Source: Allobaculum fili
GTDB lineage: Bacteria > Bacillota_I > Bacilli_A > Erysipelotrichales > Erysipelotrichaceae
Direction: 5' to 3'
NCBI RefSeq assembly: GCF_020969955.1
Contig: NZ_JAHDSX010000058.1
Location: 1-11,842, forward strand
DNA length: 11,842 nt
Shown here: one piece after another, positions 2,029-11,842 of the stretch
Layout of the letters: each line of letters starts with the position of its first letter
Position numbering within the stretch: the first letter of the stretch is position 1
The notes under the pieces: model-generated
What the model was told of the DNA's origin: nothing
Databases searched by the model: none
Seen by the model: only the letters and a program-made list of their open reading frames with translations
Program-made: the position numbers and the translations under genes

Positions 2029-2355
2029 ATGAACGAACTTGAAAGAGATGTTGAGCAGTATCTGGTTCGAAAAATCAAGGACGCCGGAGGGCTTTGCTGG
2101 AAATTCGTAAGTCCAGGCACTCGAGGCGTGCCGGATCGCTGGTGTGTTCTGGCCGGAAAGCAGTTCTTCGTAGAGCTCAAGAAGCCAAACGCCCGACGCA
2201 GATCAGACGAGAAGCTTCAGGCGCACAGAGCCGAGCAGATCAAAGAGCAAGGGCTTAAGGTCTACCGAATCGCATCCAAACCGGCTGTAGATCTGCTGCT
2301 TAAGTGGATCATCGCAGGACATCTGCCAAAGCCCGAGCGAATTGAAGTGCTATGA
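2029..2355 (+). CDS. VRR-NUC domain nuclease (PD-(D/E)xK fold)
   Basis: Translation begins MNELERDVEQYLVRKIKDAGG and contains GVPDRWCVLAGKQFFVELKKP, which is the GxPD...(E)xK motif of VRR-NUC. AGGAGA (2015-2020) lies 8 nt upstream of ATG2029. The longer track ORF from 1885 runs through the iterons and is not credible. The stop overlaps the next start (ATGA). Confidence 0.8.
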   Translation: MNELERDVEQYLVRKIKDAGGLCWKFVSPGTRGVPDRWCVLAGKQFFVELKKPNARRRSDEKLQAHRAEQIKEQGLKVYRIASKPAVDLLLKWIIAGHLPKPERIEVL

Positions 2356-3698
2356 CGGCCTTTAAGCCCCATCCCTACCAACAGCGGGGTGTCCGGTGGA
2401 TTCTTGACCATCCAAGCTGTGGGCTTTTTCTGCCGATGGGAGCCGGCAAGACCGCCACAACCCTGACAGCGGTTGAGTATCTGCTTCGCACAAGCTTTGA
2501 GTCATGGAAAGTTCTGGTGATCGGACCGAAGCGGGTCATTGAAACGACGTGGCCCGGCGAAATCCAGAAGTGGGACAACCTCGCCGGCCTGAGGATTTCC
2601 GTCATCGCAGGAACTCCAAAGAAACGAGAAGCGGCCGTCCATGCCGAAGCGGATATCTACCTGATCAGCAAGGAGAACGTTGTCTGGCTGGTGGATCTGA
2701 TCGGCAAAGACTGGCCGTGGGACACGGTTGTCATCGACGAATTATCGACATTTAAAAATCCCAAGTCCAAGCGTTTTCGGGCCTTGCGGAAGATGCTGCC
2801 GATGATCTCCAGACTGATCGGCCTGACCGGCACGCCATCACCCAAAGGCATCCCCGACCTGTGGAGTCAGATATACCTGATGGACAGGGGCGAACGGCTT
2901 GGCCGGACGCTTGGCGCCTTCCGAACGGCTTACCTCAAACCGGGGATGACCAGCGGACACGTTGTCTATAACTGGTCTGTCCAGCCTGGAGCCTCCGAGG
3001 TTATCCAGAAACGGATTTCCGATATCTGTATGTCGATCGATCAGGCCGAGTATGCGACCCTGCCAGACTGCCAGATGATTGATATCCCTGTAGATCTCGG
3101 ATCCGATCTGAAAAAATATCAGGCTTTCAAGAAAGAGCTGGTGCTGGATGTCGGAAGCGAAACCATTGCGGCGGACAGCGCCGGGGTGATGTGCGGCAAG
3201 CTGCTTCAATACACATCGGGAGCGATCTACGACGAGGACCACAATGTCCACGTCCTCCACAAGCACAAGCTTGAATCCCTCTTGGAGCTGATGGAGTCAG
3301 CCAACGGCCAGCCTGTGATGATCTTTTACTGGTACCAGCATGAGAAAGCCAGAATAGCGGAAGCGCTGAAGGGCTACAAAGGCATGGATGTCAAAGACAA
3401 GGGGGCCATCCAGAAATGGAATCGTGGTGATCTTGGTTATCTTCTGCTTCAGCCGTCATCAGCCGGCCACGGACTGAACCTTCAGAAAGGCGGACATATC
3501 GCCATCTGGTACAGCCTTCCAAACTGGAATCTTGAGCTGTATCAGCAGGCTAATGCCAGGATCTACAGGCAGGGACAGAAAGAAAAGGTCCTGATCTATC
3601 ACCTGATGGCAAAGGGGACAATCGATCAGGACATGCTGAAGGCTTTGAAATCGAAAGAGATAACGCAGAGGGATCTTCTGGATGCGCTGAGAATATGA
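2352..3698 (+). CDS. SNF2 / DEAD-like superfamily II helicase (phage replication/recombination helicase)
   Basis: The product is 448 aa. Motif I is LPMGAGKT, motif II is VVIDELSTF, motif III is LTGTPSP, and motif VI is QQANARIYRQGQ. The start is ATGA-coupled to the VRR-NUC gene. The VirE / VRR-NUC / SNF2 trio is a common phage replication module. Confidence 0.9.
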   Translation: MTAFKPHPYQQRGVRWILDHPSCGLFLPMGAGKTATTLTAVEYLLRTSFESWKVLVIGPKRVIETTWPGEIQKWDNLAGLRISVIAGTPKKREAAVHAEADIYLISKENVVWLVDLIGKDWPWDTVVIDELSTFKNPKSKRFRALRKMLPMISRLIGLTGTPSPKGIPDLWSQIYLMDRGERLGRTLGAFRTAYLKPGMTSGHVVYNWSVQPGASEVIQKRISDICMSIDQAEYATLPDCQMIDIPVDLGSDLKKYQAFKKELVLDVGSETIAADSAGVMCGKLLQYTSGAIYDEDHNVHVLHKHKLESLLELMESANGQPVMIFYWYQHEKARIAEALKGYKGMDVKDKGAIQKWNRGDLGYLLLQPSSAGHGLNLQKGGHIAIWYSLPNWNLELYQQANARIYRQGQKEKVLIYHLMAKGTIDQDMLKALKSKEITQRDLLDALRI

Positions 3699-4970: not shown

Positions 4971-4992
4971 GAGAAGAAAGGAGGTCTGAGAG

Positions 4993-5412
4993 ATGACTGA
5001 AAAACAGAAACAGTTCTGCGATGAATACTTAGCCAACGGTCTGAACGCCACTCAGGCCTACCTGGCTGTTTATAAGAACGTGAAGAGCGAAGATGCGGCT
5101 AGAACAAACGCGTCGAGACTGCTAACAAATGCTAACGTCCGTGAATACATCGACGTCGCCCTGGCAAAGATCCATGACGAGAAAACGATGGATGCCAAGG
5201 AGGTCATGGAGCGTCTGACGGCGATCGGGCGCGAAGAAACAACGGATCAGCTGCTGACGATGGATGGCGATGTTAAAGAGGTCAAATCCAAAACGCAGGA
5301 TCGGATCCGGGCGCTTGAACTGATCGGCAAAGCCTACGGCATGTTCAAGGACAAAGTCGAAATGGAAGTCGCTACGCCTGTCTTTGCAGGAGAAAGCGAT
5401 CTTGAAGACTGA
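4993..5412 (+). CDS. terS: Terminase small subunit (Terminase_2 / P27 family)
   Basis: The N-terminus MTEKQKQFCDEYLANGLNATQAYLAVYKNVKSEDAARTNASRLLTNANVREYI is the hallmark of the phage TerS pfam03592 family. A strong RBS AAAGGAGG lies 8 nt upstream. The gene sits directly upstream of terL. Confidence 0.92.
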   Translation: MTEKQKQFCDEYLANGLNATQAYLAVYKNVKSEDAARTNASRLLTNANVREYIDVALAKIHDEKTMDAKEVMERLTAIGREETTDQLLTMDGDVKEVKSKTQDRIRALELIGKAYGMFKDKVEMEVATPVFAGESDLED

Positions 5413-6652
5413 GAAGATCTACCTGCCGGACATTGTCGGAAAAGGCTATAAGACGTTCTGGAATTTCAAAGGTCGCTACCGGGTTGTCAAAGGCAGCCGA
5501 GCGTCCAAGAAGTCCAAGACGACGGCGCTCTGGTTCATCTACAACCTGATGAAGTATCCCGGATCCAACCTGCTGGTTGTCCGCAAGACGTACAGAACGC
5601 TCAAAGACAGCTGTTTTACGGATCTGCAGTGGGCCTGTCAGCGTCTGAAGTGCTCCCGCTTCTGGGAATTCAAGCTGTCGCCTCTGGAGGCCACATACAA
5701 GCCTACCGGGCAGAAGATTCTTTTCCGTGGCCTGGACGATCCGCTGAAGGTTACGTCGATCACAGTGCCTGTCGGATCTCTTTGCTGGGGATGGATCGAG
5801 GAAGCGTATGAGCTGACCAGCGAAGAAGATTTCAGCACGCTGGATGAGTCGATCCGAGGCGAACTGCCTGACGGACTCTGGAAGCAATGGACGATAACAT
5901 TCAACCCGTGGAACGAACACCATTGGCTTAAAAAGCGCTTCTTTGACGCGCCTGAGAGCGAAAACATCCTTGCCCTTACCACAAACTACCTCTGCAACGA
6001 ATGGCTGGATCAGAGCGATTTGGAGCTCTTTGAGGACATGAAAAAGCGCAACCCGAGGCGCTATGAAGTTGCTGGCCTTGGCAACTGGGGAATCGTGGAT
6101 GGTCTTGTTTATGAGAACTTCCACATTCGGGAATTCGAGATTACCGACATTGGAGACGCAGTCACCGTAAGCGGTCTGGACTTTGGTTTTACCAACGATC
6201 CAACCGCTTTTTTCGTGGGCTTCGCTGACAAGGCAAATCGAAAACTCTGGGTGTGGGATGAGATCTACGAAAAGGGCATGACCAACAGCCGGATCTATGA
6301 GCGGATCGAGGCTCTGGGGTATCGCAAGAACAGGATCATTGCCGACTGCGCAGATGCGAAGTCAATCTATGAACTGGCCAGAATGGGCCTGAAAATCAAT
6401 GGATCAAGAAAAGGCGCCGACTCCATACGAGCCGGCGTTCAGTTTATCCAGGACTACGAGATCATCATCAAGCCGCGCTGTGTGAACTTCATCACGGAGA
6501 TTCAGAACTACCAGTGGGCCAAGGACAAATTCGGCAGCTCGATCAACAAGCCGATCGATGATTTTAACCATTTGATGGACGCCATGCGCTATGCCATGGA
6601 GCCCATACAGCGCGGATCTGTGAAGGTTCGCTCGATCAAAGGAGGATTCTAA
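5402..6652 (+). CDS. terL: Terminase large subunit (PBSX / Terminase_3-type ATPase-nuclease)
   Basis: The Walker A-like motif is VVKGSRASKKSKT, and WGWIEEAYE is Walker B-like. The C-terminal nuclease block is GLDFGFTNDPTA...DDFNHLMDAMRYA. I prefer TTG5402 as the start, because AGGAGA (5388-5393) lies 8 nt upstream. The track start TTG5384 has no SD. The gene overlaps the terS stop. Confidence 0.9.
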   Translation: MKTEKIYLPDIVGKGYKTFWNFKGRYRVVKGSRASKKSKTTALWFIYNLMKYPGSNLLVVRKTYRTLKDSCFTDLQWACQRLKCSRFWEFKLSPLEATYKPTGQKILFRGLDDPLKVTSITVPVGSLCWGWIEEAYELTSEEDFSTLDESIRGELPDGLWKQWTITFNPWNEHHWLKKRFFDAPESENILALTTNYLCNEWLDQSDLELFEDMKKRNPRRYEVAGLGNWGIVDGLVYENFHIREFEITDIGDAVTVSGLDFGFTNDPTAFFVGFADKANRKLWVWDEIYEKGMTNSRIYERIEALGYRKNRIIADCADAKSIYELARMGLKINGSRKGADSIRAGVQFIQDYEIIIKPRCVNFITEIQNYQWAKDKFGSSINKPIDDFNHLMDAMRYAMEPIQRGSVKVRSIKGGF

Positions 6653-8041
6653 ATGAGTACCAAACGACCATACCAGCTTCCGGAACCTCTGATTTGCGAG
6701 ACGGATGTGAACCTTGACTATGCATTGGTCAAGCGGTTTATCGACAAGCACGCCAGCCGAATGCAGCGTTACAAGTATCTTGAAGAAATGTACAAAGGTT
6801 TCCACAGCATCTATCAGCAGCCAGATAAGCCGGACTGGAAGCCCGATAACCGGCTGGCGATCAATTACCCGCGCTACATCACAGAAACGTTTCTGGGATA
6901 CGCCTACGGCATTCCAATCAAGGAAAGCCATCCAGATGATACGGTAGCCGAAGCCATGCGCGAATTTCAGAACGAAAATGAACTGTCTGATCATGAATAC
7001 GAGCTCTTTCAGGATGTCTGCATTTATGGCCATGCTTTCGAGTACCTCTACCAGGACGAGGAAGCAAAGACCAGAATGACAGTCTGCACGCCGAAGGAGC
7101 TTTTTATCGTTTACGACGATACAGTCCGAAACAGAGCCTTGTTTGCGGTTCGCTATGCCGTTCATGAGATTGAAGGCAGCCAGGGCGAGCTTTTTGGCGA
7201 AGTGCTGACCAGAGACCAGATCATCCGCTTCGACAAAGGGAACTTTACTGAGACGCTCGACAATCCATACGGACTGATTCCGGTTGTCGAGTATCTGATG
7301 AACCGTCAGCGCCTTGGTCTGTATGAGAACGTCACCGGCCTGATCGAAGCCTATAACCGGGCAATCGGTGAAAAAGCCAACGACGTTGACGCTTTTGCAG
7401 AAGCCTATATGAAGCTGATCGGCGTGGACATCGACGATGAGGAAGTGAAGCGAATCCGTGAAAACCGGATCATCAATCTGCCAGTATATGGCGATACGAC
7501 GGGCACGCAGGTTGATTTCATGGCCAAGCCGACAGCTGACTCCACGCAGGAAAACCTGCTGGACCGTCTGGATCGGCAGATCTACCAGATCTCGATGGTG
7601 GCCAACATCAGCGATGAATCGTTTGGCAACGCAACCAGCGGAACCGCCCTGGCTTACAAGCTTCAAGCCATGAGCAATCTGGCCAGCGGTTTTGACCGCA
7701 AGATCGAAAAAAGCCTGCGCAAGCGCTACAAGATCTGGTCAACGCTTAAAACGAACGTGAGCGATGAGAACGCATGGAAGGAACTGCAGGTAACAACAAG
7801 CCGCAACCTTCCCAAGAATCGCCTGGAAGAGGCACAGACAGCCGCACAGCTGTCCGGCATCGTCTCCCATGAAACACAGCTCTCATTACTCTCGATCGTG
7901 TCGGATCCGAAGGCAGAGCTTGAGAAAATCGAACAGGAACAGGAGCCTCAGCCGCTCATGGACTTCGATTCTCACCCGTCTGTAACCTCGAAAGAGGAAG
8001 GCAGCCTGGAAGAGCCGGAGGGCGGCTATGGCCTCCAGTAA
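6653..8041 (+). CDS. Portal protein (SPP1 gp6-like family)
   Basis: The product is 462 aa. GGAGG lies 7 nt upstream. It follows terL immediately, and its N-terminal region (FIDKHASRMQRYKYLEEMYKG...NRLAINYPRYITETFLGY) is typical of SPP1-type portals. The C-terminal tail is acidic. Confidence 0.88.
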   Translation: MSTKRPYQLPEPLICETDVNLDYALVKRFIDKHASRMQRYKYLEEMYKGFHSIYQQPDKPDWKPDNRLAINYPRYITETFLGYAYGIPIKESHPDDTVAEAMREFQNENELSDHEYELFQDVCIYGHAFEYLYQDEEAKTRMTVCTPKELFIVYDDTVRNRALFAVRYAVHEIEGSQGELFGEVLTRDQIIRFDKGNFTETLDNPYGLIPVVEYLMNRQRLGLYENVTGLIEAYNRAIGEKANDVDAFAEAYMKLIGVDIDDEEVKRIRENRIINLPVYGDTTGTQVDFMAKPTADSTQENLLDRLDRQIYQISMVANISDESFGNATSGTALAYKLQAMSNLASGFDRKIEKSLRKRYKIWSTLKTNVSDENAWKELQVTTSRNLPKNRLEEAQTAAQLSGIVSHETQLSLLSIVSDPKAELEKIEQEQEPQPLMDFDSHPSVTSKEEGSLEEPEGGYGLQ

Positions 8042-9554
8042 GTACTGGTCGGAGCGTGAGGCGGACTGGACGAAGGAGTGCCAGGCAAACAATGTGCAGT
8101 GGGATCAGGAGCTGCAGGACATCTATCAGACGATGAGCGATGAAATCAGTGAACAGATTGCGGTGTTCTTTCAGAAGTACGCGGATGAAAACGGCCTGAC
8201 CTATGCCCAGGCGAAACAGTATCTGGATCGGACCGATATCAGCTACTATTCCCGTCTGGCCAAACGCTACTGTGAAGATGCAGCCAAAGACATGGCAGCG
8301 GGAACGTGGGCGCATGACGCAGCGAAAAGCTACTTCACGCAGCAGGCCAATCAAGAAATGAAGCGCTACAACACCGCCATGAAGATTGCCCGTCTGGATA
8401 TGCTCAAGCGCCAGATCAGCCTGCGGATTGCCAACGCCCAGCGCAAAGCCTGCAGCGTCGTTGAGGACGCTCTCAATGACCGCATCCTGCAGACCTACAC
8501 AAGACAGGCCGGCATTCTGGGCGATACGGTACTTACCAACCTGAAGCACGTAAGCACCATCGCTCACGCGTCCTTCCATGGAGCGACCTTCTCCGATCGG
8601 ATCTGGGGCACCCAGCAGGCGAAACTAAAAAAAGTCCTGAACAAAGCGCTTCAGGACTGTTTGATTCTGGGAAAGGGTGCGGCACCGTTCACTAGAGAGC
8701 TAAAAAAGGCAACGGGGAAAACAACCCGAGAGTGCCAGAGGCTCATTTCGACGGAGCTGAGCCGGGTAAGAGTTCAGGCATCCCTGGATTCTTTTAAGGC
8801 CTGTGGATTCGATGAGTTCCAAATCATTGCCAATCCAGACTGCTGCAAAGAATGCCAGGCAATCAACGGGGAGCACTTCCCGCTGCCAAAACTGGCATCA
8901 GGCGAGAACGCCCCGCCGATGCATCCAAACTGCCGCTGCTCCATTGCCCCGTATGAAGCCAGAGACGAAGACGGCGATAAGGACTTTGATGAGGCTGCGT
9001 TCGATGAATGGTGCGACTACATGGAGAAGCATGAGGATGACCCGAATGCGATGACATGGGAAGAGTGGAAGAGCAGAAACCGTGGTATTGAACAAGAGCG
9101 TCCTATGGCTAACGGAGCGAGACGAAGTAATACTTATATTCTCTCTGAAAAGGAAATTGAGTTTATTAAAGGAGAGGCCGAAAACATTGGCATTCCACTT
9201 GATATATTGAGCTTTAATGAGGGAAACGTAACCGGTGTAAATGAGGTTATGGGATTGATCAGAATTAGAGGAGACGTTTTACCGGACAAAAGTTCAAATA
9301 ACAATAGGGATTTGTTATCTGTGCGGGCTGTACTTGCTCACGAATATTATGGCCATTTTAAACACATCCCCTCTGAATATCCGATTGGAGATTGGAGGGA
9401 TGAGTTCAGAGCTAGTTATGAAGCGGCATTAAATGCTCCGAATTTATCCGATGAAGACCGATCTAGACTTATAATAGATGCATATGAAAGGCAGAAAGAA
9501 GCAGGTGAGTTTAATGGCTACAGCGAAGAAGCAAAGCGAATTCTCTTTGGATGA
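8028..9554 (+). CDS. Head morphogenesis / minor capsid protein (Phage_Mu_F, SPP1 gp7 family) fused to a roughly 150-aa low-GC C-terminal domain of unknown function
   Basis: The MuF signature is NPDCCKECQAINGEHFPLP...APPMHPNCRCSIAPY (about aa 265-315). An acidic linker follows. From about nt 9125 (aa ~366) the composition drops to about 35-38% GC, and the sequence contains LAHEYYGHFKH. GGAGG lies 6 nt upstream of ATG8028, which overlaps the portal gene end. Confidence 0.85.
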   Translation: MASSKYWSEREADWTKECQANNVQWDQELQDIYQTMSDEISEQIAVFFQKYADENGLTYAQAKQYLDRTDISYYSRLAKRYCEDAAKDMAAGTWAHDAAKSYFTQQANQEMKRYNTAMKIARLDMLKRQISLRIANAQRKACSVVEDALNDRILQTYTRQAGILGDTVLTNLKHVSTIAHASFHGATFSDRIWGTQQAKLKKVLNKALQDCLILGKGAAPFTRELKKATGKTTRECQRLISTELSRVRVQASLDSFKACGFDEFQIIANPDCCKECQAINGEHFPLPKLASGENAPPMHPNCRCSIAPYEARDEDGDKDFDEAAFDEWCDYMEKHEDDPNAMTWEEWKSRNRGIEQERPMANGARRSNTYILSEKEIEFIKGEAENIGIPLDILSFNEGNVTGVNEVMGLIRIRGDVLPDKSSNNNRDLLSVRAVLAHEYYGHFKHIPSEYPIGDWRDEFRASYEAALNAPNLSDEDRSRLIIDAYERQKEAGEFNGYSEEAKRILFG

Positions 9555-9708
9555 GAAAAAAGCATTGACTTATAAACTTGATCACCCGGAGGAAAAAGTT
9601 GTTTGCCCAAGATGTGGAAAACTGTTGACGTATAAACGGATCGGCAAAAGCTCTGAAGCTCGCTGTGAAACAGAAGGCTGCATTCATGGAAGCGTGAGAG
9701 GAATATGA
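9514..9708 (+). CDS. Small zinc-ribbon protein (CxxC-x16-C-x4-C). It is the first gene downstream of the MuF C-terminal domain and a candidate cognate immunity or partner protein.
   Basis: The product is 64 aa from ATG9514, with AGGTGA 5 nt upstream. It contains CPRCGKLLTYKRIGKSSEARCETEGC. It overlaps the MuF 3' end by 41 nt. The track start at 9478 is also in frame but lacks an RBS. Confidence 0.5.
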   Translation: MATAKKQSEFSLDEKKALTYKLDHPEEKVVCPRCGKLLTYKRIGKSSEARCETEGCIHGSVRGI

Positions 9709-9711
9709 ACT

Positions 9712-9739
9712 GAGATGCCATAACAGGCTCTTTGTTTTT
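9712..9739 (+). terminator. Intrinsic terminator (junction module J1)
   Basis: The stem is AGA(T)GCC / GGCTCT with a 1-nt bulge, and the loop is ATAACA. It is followed by TTTGTTTTT. The sequence TAACAGGCTCTTT (9721-9733) is identical to 10111-10123. Confidence 0.6.
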
Positions 9740-9757
9740 CCAGAAAGGGAACTTAAC

Positions 9758-10090
9758 ATGCCAAAAGATGATTACAACAGAATTTTATTCTTGATCCTGT
9801 ACGGTTTGTATGATGACCTGAGAAAAGGCAAACGGACTCAGCTAGATGAAATTTCGCCATCTGCTTTAGGAATCAGCGAATCGTATTGGCTGTCTGTGAT
9901 TGAAGATGCAGTCAATGACGGGTTCGTTAAAGGGCCAACTTTCAAGACTACCAAATTCGGTCGAGTACCCAAAGATCTTGAAGAGATGACCATCACCCGC
10001 GATGGTGTGACCTTTCTCACAGAGAATTCGAAAATGAAAAAAGTGTATGAAGTCCTGAAAGAAACGAGAGATTGGCTTCCAATTTTTTAG
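9758..10090 (+). CDS. YjcQ-like small winged-helix protein (prophage-associated family)
   Basis: The product is 110 aa. The pattern (ILFLILYGLYD...LGISESYWLSVIEDAVNDGFVKG...ITRDGVTFLTENSKMKKVYE) matches my recollection of the YjcQ/pfam09639 family. There is a weak SD (GGGA) 7 nt upstream. The region is low in GC. Confidence 0.55.
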   Translation: MPKDDYNRILFLILYGLYDDLRKGKRTQLDEISPSALGISESYWLSVIEDAVNDGFVKGPTFKTTKFGRVPKDLEEMTITRDGVTFLTENSKMKKVYEVLKETRDWLPIF

Positions 10091-10099
10091 CGAATAGTG

Positions 10100-10130
10100 A
10101 AAAGAGCCGCTAACAGGCTCTTTTTTGTTT
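10100..10130 (+). terminator. Intrinsic terminator (junction module J2)
   Basis: The stem is AAAAGAGCC (10100-10108) / GGCTCTTTT (10116-10124), the loop is GCTAACA, and a T-run follows to 10126 and then GTTT. Flanking A- and T-runs could allow bidirectional function. Confidence 0.7.
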
Positions 10131-10141
10131 GGAGGAATGAA

Positions 10142-10309
10142 ATGACGAAAGAAAAAGAAGAACAAATTTTCAATGAACTGAAAGGCATCTCTTATCTCGA
10201 TTGGGAAAAGGTTAAACGGATTATTGATATAGCCTTTCAAATGAAAATAAAAAGTGTCACGAAGACCGTGACACTCGATAGCTTTGATGCGGCAAAGAGT
10301 GAGATGTAG
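10142..10309 (+). CDS. Small hypothetical protein (55 aa)
   Basis: ATG10142 lies 6 nt after GGAGG (10131-10135). The product is MTKEKEEQIFNELKGISYLDWEKVKRIIDIAFQMKIKSVTKTVTLDSFDAAKSEM. The track start at 10097 would span the J2 terminator hairpin. The region is about 30% GC. Confidence 0.5.
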   Translation: MTKEKEEQIFNELKGISYLDWEKVKRIIDIAFQMKIKSVTKTVTLDSFDAAKSEM

Positions 10310-10312
10310 AAA

Positions 10313-10573
10313 CTACTCTTCTACGATTTGGATAAAAATAGGATTGATTCTATAGGACTTCCCCTGGTAATGAATCCAGATATAATCAAGCTCGGTAAAG
10401 GTATCATTTTTAGAGGAGTCCTTTTTTGTCCATATCTCAGCGCCTTCTTCCAACCAGATATAAGGGCTTTGCCGGTATTCGCCCATAAGACATTCTTTAT
10501 CTGCAGATAAATTAACCCAATGTCCTAATAAGCATGCGTACACATTTTTCACACACTTCTCCTTTCTAGCCAT
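10313..10573 (-). CDS. Hypothetical protein on the opposite strand (86 aa from the ATG, or 94 aa from TTG10597)
   Basis: This is the only credible minus-strand ORF in the window. It converges on the 55-aa gene, with stops 3 nt apart, around the hairpin GTAGAA-ACTACTC-TTCTAC (10306-10324). Neither start has an SD. TACAAT lies 6 nt upstream of ATG10573, so a leaderless mRNA is possible. No family was recognised. Confidence 0.4.
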   Translation of the reverse strand: MARKEKCVKNVYACLLGHWVNLSADKECLMGEYRQSPYIWLEEGAEIWTKKDSSKNDTFTELDYIWIHYQGKSYRINPIFIQIVEE

Positions 10574-10589
10574 AAGAGAATTGTATACC

Positions 10590-10611
10590 CGTCTCAATCG
10601 AGGCGTTTTTT
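10590..10611 (+). terminator. Intrinsic terminator (junction module J3)
   Basis: The stem is CGTCTC (10590-10595) / GAGGCG (10600-10605) with one G.U pair, the loop is AATC, and TTTTTT (10606-10611) follows. Confidence 0.6.
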
Positions 10612-10626
10612 GTTTGGAGGAATGAA

Positions 10627-10791
10627 ATGACTGACGTAATCGTGCTGACCGATGCGGATAAGATTTTCGGTAATATTCTGACCGGGATTATGCTCACATT
10701 CACAGTGTTTCTGCTGGTCGGCTTCATCTGCATTGGACTGAAAGTGCTGTGGAAGTTTTTCAAAATGCTCTGGGAGGATCTTAACGAATGA
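10627..10791 (+). CDS. Small single-pass membrane protein (54 aa). It is below the ORF-track length cutoff.
   Basis: ATG10627 lies 6 nt after GGAGG (10616-10620). The product is MTDVIVLTDADKIFGNILTGIMLTFTVFLLVGFICIGLKVLWKFFKMLWEDLNE, with a hydrophobic helix of about 20 residues. Its stop, TGA10789-10791, overlaps the ATG10788 start of the Prp-like gene (ATGA coupling). Confidence 0.55.
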   Translation: MTDVIVLTDADKIFGNILTGIMLTFTVFLLVGFICIGLKVLWKFFKMLWEDLNE

Positions 10792-11090
10792 TCATGATCG
10801 ACACAGATCTGAAGACAGACATTCAGATTAAAGGCCATGCAGGCTATGCACCGGCCGGATCCGATATCGTCTGTGCGGCTGTCTCGATTTTATATGAGAC
10901 GCTGAAAAGAATGCTTCGACCGGGACTGGATGGAACCGTAATAGAAGACGAAAACGGGATCAGAATTGAAATCAATCCGGATCTGGGCACCTGGGGAAGA
11001 GTTTCCCTGAATTACTTCATTACCGGGATTCAGATGCTGGAGAGGGAGTACCCCAAACATGTTCAACTGAAGATTGGGCGAGCGAATTAA
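10788..11090 (+). CDS. prp: Prp-like cysteine protease (ribosomal-processing cysteine protease / DUF464 family). It is the predicted phage-encoded capsid and scaffold propeptide protease.
   Basis: The product is 100 aa. The hallmark IKGHAGYAPAGSDIVCAAVS carries the His...Cys catalytic dyad spacing of Prp. The gene lies directly upstream of a scaffold gene and a capsid gene that both begin with L27-like LQRFA propeptides. Confidence 0.8.
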   Translation: MIMIDTDLKTDIQIKGHAGYAPAGSDIVCAAVSILYETLKRMLRPGLDGTVIEDENGIRIEINPDLGTWGRVSLNYFITGIQMLEREYPKHVQLKIGRAN

Positions 11091-11101
11091 GCTCGCTTTT
11101 T
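11078..11101 (+). terminator. Intrinsic terminator overlapping the stop codon of the prp-like gene
   Basis: The stem is GCGAGC (11078-11083) / GCTCGC (11091-11096), the loop is GAATTAA (containing the TAA stop), and TTTTT (11097-11101) follows. Confidence 0.65.
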
Positions 11102-11179
11102 CTATGCCCAGGCAGGGACGGCATTAAAAGCTCTGGAAGGATCGTCCGACATGACGTTAAACCGGGGGGAATAAAGGAA

Positions 11180-11752
11180 ATGGAAAAACTGAATCTTCAG
11201 CGTTTCGCTGATGAAGCAGAAAACGCCCAGGCGCCAGACCAGGGCAAACCGGCGGAAGAGACTAAAGATCCTTCTGCCGCAAAATACTCAGACGCAGATC
11301 TGGACAAGATCATCAGCGCCAAGTTCGCCAAGTGGGCAGCCGATCGGGATAAAGCCGTAGAGGACGCCCGCAAGGAAGGCGAAAAGCTGGCCAAGATGAA
11401 TGCCGACCAGAAGAAAGCGTATGAGCTGGAACAGGCTCAAAAAGAGGCCCAGAGCCTCAAAGAACAGGTGGCCAAACTGGAGCAGGCACAGAAGCAGGCA
11501 GAGCTGAGAAAGAGCGCTGCAGAGATCTTTTCCCAGAACTACAAGCTGACCGTCACAAACGATGTTCTGGATTTCGTTGTCGGTAAAGATGCCGAAGAAA
11601 CCAATGCGAATATTCAGAAGATGGCGGCACTGCTCCAGGCAGAAAGACAGGCAGGCGAAAAGGCAAGAGCGACTGGATCTACGCCTTTTGGAACATCCAT
11701 CAATCACGAGCCCGCCAGTCCGTTCCAGAAGAAACTGGACAAATGGAAATAG
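11180..11752 (+). CDS. Capsid scaffolding protein (GP20/DUF4355-like coiled-coil) with an N-terminal Prp-cleavage propeptide
   Basis: The product is 190 aa. It is Ala/Glu/Lys/Gln-rich with predicted coiled-coil character (KEAQSLKEQVAKLEQAQKQAELRK). The N-terminus is MEKLNLQRFA|DEA. It sits between the protease and capsid genes. Confidence 0.8.
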   Translation: MEKLNLQRFADEAENAQAPDQGKPAEETKDPSAAKYSDADLDKIISAKFAKWAADRDKAVEDARKEGEKLAKMNADQKKAYELEQAQKEAQSLKEQVAKLEQAQKQAELRKSAAEIFSQNYKLTVTNDVLDFVVGKDAEETNANIQKMAALLQAERQAGEKARATGSTPFGTSINHEPASPFQKKLDKWK

Positions 11753-11760
11753 GAGGAACC

Positions 11761-11842
11761 ATGAACGAATTTAAACTTCAGCGCTTTGCGGAAGGTGATG
11801 GAACTAGTACGACAACCACACCGACAGGCGCAAACAATGAAA
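11761..11842 (+). CDS. Major capsid protein, 5' end only (truncated by the window edge)
   Basis: GGAGG lies 4 nt upstream (11753-11757, spacer AACC). The product begins MNEFKLQRFA|EGDGTSTTTTPTGANNE, with an L27-like propeptide. The position after the scaffold gene is canonical. Only 27 codons are visible. Confidence 0.65.
   Translation, partial: MNEFKLQRFAEGDGTSTTTTPTGANNE

Follow-up and report, generated by a model that had tools for sequence, protein, structure and literature searches.

What is joined to the end of a phage head protein, and what might it do there? The question is raised by an 11,842-nucleotide (nt) stretch of Allobaculum fili DNA (contig NZ_JAHDSX010000058.1 of assembly GCF_020969955.1), referred to here in its whole length as the window, in which an open reading frame (ORF) of 508 amino acids (aa) at 8028-9554 opens as a MuF/gp7 head protein and closes with a separate domain. 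A first-pass annotation of the sequence had noticed this two-part build and had taken the C-terminal ~145 aa for a horizontally swapped module. We consider it probable that the ORF encodes a MuF polymorphic toxin of an Allobaculum prophage, the toxin being a peptidase cassette with a cognate zinc-ribbon partner. This answer is built on gene anatomy, the swapping of the cassette, the linkage of toxin and partner, the range of carriers, residue conservation, and the predicted topology of the fold; from these we infer that the protein is packaged and injected, that it binds metal and cleaves proteins, that the partner inhibits it, and that it is toxic and acts on a target. The features of the ORF, and of the small gene that overlaps its end, are as follows.

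8028-9554, plus strand: MuF-toxin ORF, 508 aa (ORF list and translation; PF04233, TIGR01641, and PHROG matches).
8637-8945, plus strand: Phage_Mu_F (SPP1 gp7-like) core, aa 204-306 (Pfam PF04233, E 2.2e-11, 44.9 bits against a gathering cut-off of 29.6).
8955-9071, plus strand: acidic linker, aa 310-348, ending in TWEEWK; the last part common to siblings with other C-termini (P0221-P0247 diverge just after it).
9079-9721, plus strand: swapped cassette of pre-toxin junction, toxin domain, and zinc-ribbon gene (blastn against the sibling prophage L074; GC 0.411).
9081-9128, plus strand: pre-toxin junction, RGI (aa 352-354) and then MANGARRS (aa 360-367), the window's version of a family motif.
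9105-9551, plus strand: C-terminal toxin domain, aa ~360-508, predicted to be zincin-like (gluzincin-type) from an AlphaFold2 (AF2) model and homologues.
9339-9356, plus strand: HEYYGH, aa 438-443, a conserved HExxGH motif and putative zinc-binding/catalytic site.
9393-9416, plus strand: WRDEFRAS, aa 456-463, with E459 as candidate third metal ligand (alignment, AF2 helix).
9503-9508, plus strand: Shine-Dalgarno-like AGGTGA, 4-5 nt upstream of the ATG at 9514.
9514-9708, plus strand: zinc-ribbon partner, 64 aa (MATAKK...CPRCG...CETEGC...VRGI*), overlapping the toxin ORF by 41 nt; putative immunity protein or inhibitor.
9697-9705, plus strand: C-terminal tripeptide R-G-I of the partner.

The first part of the ORF is a recognizable head protein. 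In addition to the Pfam match, the NCBIfam profile TIGR01641 (phageSPP1_gp7) matched at E 3.2e-18, and the PHROG minor head protein families cover only aa 1-~388, the last ~150 aa being distinct. HPNCRCSIAPY, where the first-pass annotation had placed the end of the Mu F-like part, lies at aa 299-309 and is followed by the acidic linker, as it had described.

Base composition changes sharply near the junction. GC content is 0.544 over 8028-9078 and 0.411 over 9079-9721; other 643-bp segments (outside 9000-10800) have a mean of 0.526 ± 0.020 and a minimum of 0.487, which places the cassette ~5.7 standard deviations below the mean. A recount returned the same values as the hand counts of the first-pass annotation (33/60, 23/60, and 21/60), and the maximum left/right contrast was computed at nt ~9124, where a shift at ~9125 had been noted; the homology breakpoint against the sibling lies at 9078/9079. 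GC at third codon positions (GC3) drops from 0.674 before the junction to 0.323 after it, so the change sits at synonymous sites and amino-acid composition is not its cause. The low-GC tract extends past the MuF ORF to ~10787 and takes in a separate accessory-gene block.

A search with aa 1-345 of the MuF protein returned 1627 homologues. The closest of these (91-97% identical in the N-terminal part) are 508, 542, 558, 565, 572, 574, and 578 aa long, and there is also a short form of 361 aa (P0247). These siblings are collinear up to TWEEWK and unrelated beyond it, with at least six other C-terminal types, so that aligning related MuF proteins, as had been suggested, revealed a constant N-terminus and a variable C-terminus. 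Comparison with the sibling prophage L074 divides the window as follows.

4984-9078: 95.7% identity; TerS, TerL, portal, and MuF N-terminus.
9079-9721: no homology; toxin domain and zinc-ribbon gene.
9722-10124: 79% identity; YjcQ.
10125-10781: mostly no homology, with one 59-bp match at 10576-10634; accessory genes.
10782-11842: 86% identity; Prp and scaffold.

In place of 9079-9721, L074 has a JAB-like C-terminus and an unrelated overlapping ORF of 74 aa, and a second sibling, L156, has an HExxH C-terminus and an overlapping ORF of 100 aa. The contents of this slot indicate that the C-terminal domain and the small gene overlapping it, and nothing else, are exchanged as a unit. Together with the drop in GC3, the loss of sibling homology over 9079-9721 supports the earlier proposal of a horizontally swapped module. 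The same comparison bears on the reading that the domain is an ordinary structural extension of the MuF lineage, its GC shift being a matter of local composition. The domain is indeed common on MuF-like proteins of uncultivated Firmicutes phages. However, the first-pass annotation had named as its own refutation a C-terminus conserved with the same composition across MuF homologues, and the siblings carry unrelated C-termini instead: the domain is absent from the 95.7%-identical siblings, which bear other domains, and from the short form P0247. It also occurs without any head protein, has an invariant H-E-x-x-G-H ... E signature and an obligate partner gene, and enters with a fall in GC3 of 0.35. 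Thus, the sibling comparison excludes a structural extension for practical purposes, and we give that reading almost no credence.

The other C-termini of the siblings are informative in themselves. Three carry a JAB/RadC-like HNHP...S.SD signature (RadC at 21.8 bits, slightly below the cut-off), three types have distinct HExxH motifs (HELFH, HEFAH, and HELGH), and one has no recognizable motif. Most of the alternatives look metallopeptidase-like by motif (P0221, P0224, P0229, P0230, P0231, and P0238), and none of the C-termini of these six proteins has a confident Pfam match. Aligning the profile of the domain family to the HExxH C-termini of P0224, P0230, and P0231 with hhalign detected no relation. 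Further afield, N-terminal homologues bear ADPrib_exo_Tox (E 5e-20), CdiA_C, or DUF6883. These findings bear on the main alternative, which we consider improbable. In this reading, modeled on the polyvalent proteins, the capsid would deliver a non-toxic peptidase with an early effector or processing role, which would serve the phage at entry by, for example, cleaving a host defense or regulatory protein or cutting itself off MuF; the small partner would be a latency factor or chaperone that holds it inactive in assembly rather than an immunity protein of a competition system. The predominance of peptidase-like C-termini in the siblings is compatible with a common task of this sort, whereas the ADP-ribosyltransferase and CdiA_C domains of the distant homologues are classical toxin domains and speak against it.

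We modeled the C-terminal domain with AF2 from 66 sequences and obtained a mean predicted local distance difference test score (pLDDT) of 91.8 and a predicted template modeling score (pTM) of 0.85. The elements of the model run, in order, helix 25-37, strands 45-47, 54-56, and 61-64, helix 83-97 with HEYYGH, helix 107-120 with WRDEF, and two more helices. This predicted order matches the zincin core, in which an N-terminal helix and a three-stranded sheet precede the helix that bears the His-Glu-His motif, and a Glu-bearing helix follows (PMC5512222). The full-length model was poor (pLDDT 68.7, pTM 0.32), and its C-terminal part was worse than the domain-only model, possibly owing to a mixed alignment.

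Conservation centers on the two motifs of the predicted core. In the 66-sequence alignment, the A, H, E, Y, and Y of AHEYYGH are invariant and the G and H nearly so, and the H, E, G, and H of HEYYGH are invariant in 100-105 full-length members. In WRDEFRAS, columns W107, D109, E110, A113, and S114 of alignment A1 are invariant, as are the W, D, E, A, and S in more than 100 members. E459 (E110 of the model) is thus invariant and lies on the helix after the motif helix, 16 residues past the second His, with 12 residues separating the end of HEYYGH from the start of WRDEF. As the first-pass annotation had pointed out, HEYYGH is not a strict HExxH; it is an HExxxH/HExxGH with one extra residue. 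This residue has precedent: HExxGH is the functional zinc site of M49 peptidases, where it is interchangeable with HExxH (PMC5805324), and an HEXXXH clade with a bent helix occurs among the metallopeptidases of phage polyvalent proteins (PMC5512222). The most likely activity of the domain is, on the predicted fold, that of a gluzincin-type metallopeptidase, an assignment we favor with reasonable confidence. A tentative metallopeptidase had been suggested before; the zincin core topology, the invariant HExxGH, and the downstream Glu strengthen that suggestion while leaving it unproven. Zincins, including the HEXXXH clade, are the commonest domain of polyvalent proteins delivered by phages and plasmids, for which processing roles have been proposed (PMC5512222), and this adds some weight to the effector alternative.

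Profiles for Tox-MPTase1-5, ATLF (anthrax lethal factor), and HopH1 matched neither the window protein nor any of the 66 family members; among 100 full-length members there was one ATLF match (E 1.5e-4), whose placement on the domain is not established. A tblastn search of 50,697 GenBank phage genomes with the domain returned no match. Literature searches found no description of HEYYGH, and those for MuF metallopeptidase immunity pairs found nothing describing the domain family. Residues 459-482 (window 9402-9473; EFRASYEAALNAPNLSDEDRSRLI) show a weak likeness to helix 1, turn, and helix 2 of staphylococcal protein A domains. We rejected a relation to protein A, since the whole-chain E value of 1.3e-4 arises from summed repeats and the single stretches are all insignificant; the likeness is probably a convergent helix-capping motif.

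The small gene at the end of the toxin ORF most likely starts at ATG 9514, given the Shine-Dalgarno-like sequence before it. The first-pass annotation had called it a zinc-ribbon ORF overlapping the 3' end, and this holds well beyond the window: an overlapping ORF of 57-71 aa lies at the toxin stop codon in 141 of 150 loci, usually with an overlap of 10-17 nt. The 150 loci were drawn from IMG/VR viral contigs, species genomes, and metagenomes. The partners share the pattern CPxCG...C(x2-4)C, in which three Cys are invariant and the fourth is kept in at least 90%, and 105 of 110 distinct sequences place R-G-[ILVF] immediately before the stop codon. The comparison with L074 indicates that the partner gene is exchanged together with the toxin domain. 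From this linkage, the partner would appear to neutralize the domain. Neutralizing partners that are so strictly co-inherited usually accompany proteins harmful to the cell that makes them, which argues against a non-toxic effector.

The domain is not confined to the MuF proteins of Allobaculum. We found 75 close homologues of the C-terminal domain (aa ~355-508), and a profile search of 1.84 billion representative proteins returned 676 clusters (50% identity) at E<=1e-3 and 239 at E<=1e-30. In all of the 150 best matches listed, the domain is at or near the C-terminus. It is present in 115 species genomes, mostly of gut Firmicutes, and in 66 IMG/VR viral contigs. Its hosts are mostly Bacillota (Oscillospiraceae, Ruminococcus, Lachnospiraceae, Turicibacter, Allobaculum, Paenibacillus, and Cohnella), with some Coriobacteriia. 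A Pfam scan of 100 full-length members identified several carriers: Phage_Mu_F in 42, Phage_min_cap2 (the "MuF2" domain of PMC5576092) in 28, VG15 in 9, and the PT-TG pre-toxin domain in 2 (P0167 at 30.4 bits, above the cut-off, and P0180, weak). Several members have glycine-rich or repeat N-termini in place of a head-protein domain, and P0172, P0176, and P0183 are among the non-MuF carriers. Conservation is higher in the domain than in its carriers: between the window and locus L008, identity is 59% for the domain and 36% for the MuF part. Most GC-rich phages show a clear fall in GC content from the N-terminal part to the domain (0.644 to 0.467 and 0.586 to 0.381 in two examples), which fits a cassette that has been moving recently. 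Among the viral members, L071 and L072 (IMG/VR contigs of 131-145 kb) diverge most, at 37% identity. In both, the ORF runs ~60 aa past the usual end of the domain, and the overlapping Cys-rich ORF ends in SEIYL, not in RG[ILV], so they may represent a variant pairing.

Stand-alone proteins of <=215 aa account for 34 of the 122 complete ORFs in the 150-locus set. Stand-alone chromosomal genes encode ~150-195 aa, and their flanks were non-phage in all three cases examined. Single metagenome-assembled genomes from termite gut contain two or three copies of the domain, most of them called as stand-alone toxin and zinc-ribbon pairs: Defluviitaleaceae Th196P1bin9 (L120, L123, and L130), Oscillospiraceae Hs463_bin105 (L132, L139, and L140), and Turicibacter Th196P1bin2 (L126 and L136). 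These pairs resemble arrays of orphan toxin-immunity cassettes or toxin-antitoxin modules. The copies without phage flanks and those on PT-TG carriers, where no capsid or entry step is involved, are difficult to square with a capsid-delivered effector; with the obligate partner, they argue for intrinsic toxicity.

The same copies raise another possibility, that the pair is a toxin-antitoxin or abortive-infection module, a moron that benefits the lysogen and came by chance to lie in frame at the 3' end of the MuF gene, capsid delivery being irrelevant. Overlapping two-gene stand-alone units on chromosomes, in multiple copies in some genomes, do resemble type II toxin-antitoxin systems, and in the window the cassette adjoins a low-GC accessory block. 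In the 66 IMG/VR viral loci, however, nearly every copy of the domain is an in-frame C-terminal fusion to a head protein, and the carriers belong to several unrelated families, so selection for the fusion is required. The junction upstream of the domain is conserved, no independent promoter-like site was found, and PADLOC returned no match. We regard a chance insertion of this kind as highly improbable and continue to favor a delivered polymorphic toxin.

The conserved junction, which precedes the domain, has the form R-x-M-A-N-G-x-R-x-S; within G-x-R, both the G and the R are nearly invariant to invariant, and the R is invariant in the larger full-length alignment A2 (105 sequences). A second element, [SRN][GD]I[IM][KND], lies 10-16 residues further upstream in 96 of 190 non-redundant junctions, compared with 1.7% of control windows. 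In the window it reads RGI and sits directly inside the breakpoint. The junction motif occurs on different carrier classes and is missing from the PT-TG type proteins. We interpret it as a cassette-borne pre-toxin junction, which may serve as a recombination landmark or as a processing site; a conserved motif just upstream of the domain would also suit an effector that cuts itself off MuF. Its likeness to the C-terminal RG[ILV] of the partner is suggestive only.

That likeness allows a more specific idea of how the partner might act. The metallocarboxypeptidase inhibitors of potato, leech, and tick are small, disulfide-rich proteins whose conserved C-terminal tail enters the active site much as a reaction product would and blocks it. 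By pure analogy, since the partner here is a zinc ribbon and the peptidase class differs, the free R-G-[ILVF]-COOH could fill the non-primed subsites and reach the metal, and the RGI of the junction would be the enzyme's own release site. If so, once the partner was lost, either during packaging or after injection, the peptidase could sever itself from MuF and turn active in the next host; one mobile cassette would then encode a protease that is delivered by the capsid, arms itself, and brings its own safety catch. We think this decidedly unlikely: aa 350-361 of the junction have a pLDDT below 50 in the AF2 model, the exact RGI occurs in only about one third of the motif-bearing junctions, and carriers of the PT-TG type are without the junction motif.

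The polymorphic toxin that we prefer would work as follows. The toxin and zinc-ribbon genes would be translationally coupled and expressed with the late head operon, and the zinc-ribbon protein would bind and silence the peptidase in the producer cell. The MuF part would bring the fusion into the procapsid, and at the next infection the fusion would enter the cytoplasm with the DNA, where the peptidase, free of its inhibitor, would cleave one or more bacterial proteins.

Several points weigh against this account. The two histidines, at i and i+5, lie on one continuous helix (83-97 by DSSP), so joint metal binding by both would need local distortion. A confident model with zincin topology was obtained, as described above, but the Foldseek search that had been suggested alongside it gave no significant match in the PDB or in BFVD, a database of predicted viral structures (best E values of 0.32 for ArdC, 6sna, in the PDB and 0.18-0.25 in BFVD); the weak matches are mostly zincins, namely, the ArdC metallopeptidase domain, anthrax lethal factor, a phage "lethal factor," and IrrE-N. 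The first-pass annotation had not recognized the domain either, and searches with the single sequence, a profile, and an active-site fragment gave no sequence match in Pfam (E up to 10), NCBIfam, PHROGs, PADLOC, or the PDB. We found no promoter-like site between the toxin ORF and the partner gene. If the partner has no promoter of its own, a lysogen is probably unprotected against incoming toxin, and this favors a "producer-cell safety catch" over classical immunity. One or two copies per virion would be a very small dose of toxin, and toxicity, packaging, and proteolysis are all read from sequence. A partner gene that lies in the late operon and lacks its own promoter, like a low copy number, would suit an effector as well; the PADLOC and anti-defense families returned no match that would speak for one.

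How does the locus compare with systems already described? It has every testable hallmark of a MuF polymorphic toxin (an N-terminal MuF domain, a place in the head module of a prophage, variable C-termini, and a C-terminal domain common to other polymorphic-toxin carriers) and is therefore of a known kind (PMC5576092, PMC3482391). Like these toxins, it has a MuF/gp7 domain next to the portal, a variable C-terminus, and a small downstream ORF, and it resides in a prophage of a gut Firmicute; in the published set, 20% of MuF toxins have a metallopeptidase-type C-terminus (Jamet et al. 2017, PMC5576092; Zhang et al. 2012, PMC3482391). Unlike them, the window domain matches no toxin family in Pfam, Tox-MPTase1-5, ATLF, and HopH1 included, and has HExxGH rather than HExxH, and a zinc ribbon ending in RG[ILVF]-COOH is not described as an immunity protein in PMC5576092 or PMC3482391. 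The toxin-domain family, the zinc-ribbon partner family with its conserved tail, and the conserved junction motif are new. Type II toxin-antitoxin systems and orphan toxin-immunity cassettes share with the family overlapping two-gene stand-alone units, a small partner candidate, multiple copies, and a chromosomal location. Here, in contrast to type II systems, the toxin gene comes first, the partner has no detectable DNA-binding antitoxin domain, and the toxin is mostly fused to delivery domains.

Two families of peptidases invite comparison. M49 enzymes are roughly 700 aa long, and their second motif, EExR(K)AE(D), resembles DEFRAS of the window. The M49 dipeptidyl peptidase III (PMC5805324, PMC5708649) shares the HExxGH hexapeptide with the window domain, but M49 members are two-lobed exopeptidases with five conserved regions and ~50 residues between the motifs, whereas the window domain has ~150 aa in all and 12 residues there. 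We rejected membership in M49, as the likeness is at the level of motifs and the PDB gave neither a sequence nor a fold match to dipeptidyl peptidase III. The zincins of polyvalent proteins (Iyer et al. 2017, PMC5512222) resemble the domain in core topology, in the extra residue between the histidines, and in MuF or virion delivery. They differ in that they are described as belonging to large multidomain proteins for which processing roles have been proposed and which have no small partner gene of their own; the window domain is found only at the C-terminus and forms a pair with a zinc-ribbon gene, a comparison made by description only. The domain may belong to the HEXXXH clade of PMC5512222.

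Judged from its gene content, the window covers the part of a siphovirus-type prophage that serves replication and head formation. The order TerS, TerL, portal, MuF, a block of small ORFs, Prp, and scaffold is that of a tailed-phage head module, and the genes outside the MuF ORF and the low-GC tract are as follows.

127-1704: VapE-like protein.
2352-3698: SNF2 helicase.
4993-5412: TerS.
5384-6652: TerL.
6653-8041: SPP1-type portal.
10788-11090: Prp-like peptidase (PF04327, E 1.7e-15).
11180-11752: DUF4355 scaffold.

The C-terminal 269 aa of the MuF protein match, residue for residue, an Allobaculum sp. Allo2 protein annotated as a "minor capsid protein"; in Allo2 the element is located in the chromosome (CP078088.1). 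In that record (L001, 6663-10810), gene calls cut the portal into three pieces, TerL into two, and MuF into two, all of which are intact in the window; the 269-aa protein is thus a truncated call, probably a result of frameshift errors in the CP078088.1 assembly. The Prp cysteine protease homologue lies immediately 5' of the DUF4355 scaffold gene, is kept in the sibling prophages, and may process head proteins.

Between the partner gene and Prp lies a second low-GC block (9722-10787; GC 0.40) with four genes.

9758-10090: YjcQ-family winged helix-turn-helix protein (PF09639, E 1e-20).
10097-10309: ORF of 70 aa.
10313-10597, minus strand: phrog_3240 ORF.
10627-10791: ORF of 54 aa, hydrophobic (membrane-type) by eye.

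In the closest phage relatives, the partner gene is followed directly by Prp, and L074 has an N6 DNA methyltransferase in the accessory slot. The first-pass annotation had named the ORF at 9758-10090 as a further immunity candidate, which we rejected: YjcQ follows the partner gene in only two other loci and is kept, at 79% identity, beside different toxins in the siblings, and it is therefore not a cognate immunity gene. The ORF at 10313-10597 is the only convincing minus-strand gene of the region and has terminator-like hairpins on both sides (10276-10252, minus strand, and 10590-10605, plus strand), which suggests an independently transcribed moron within the late operon.

Naming and modeling the pair would improve the annotation of gut prophages, in which such proteins are now labeled "minor capsid protein." The pair would also offer a compact candidate protease and inhibitor for experiments, and the conserved C-terminal tail of the partner provides a simple, falsifiable idea of how the domain may be inhibited. 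The Allobaculum sibling prophages, which differ essentially only in the toxin and partner cassette, amount to a clean natural experiment on MuF toxins, a predicted and almost untested route by which temperate phages would deliver proteins into bacteria.

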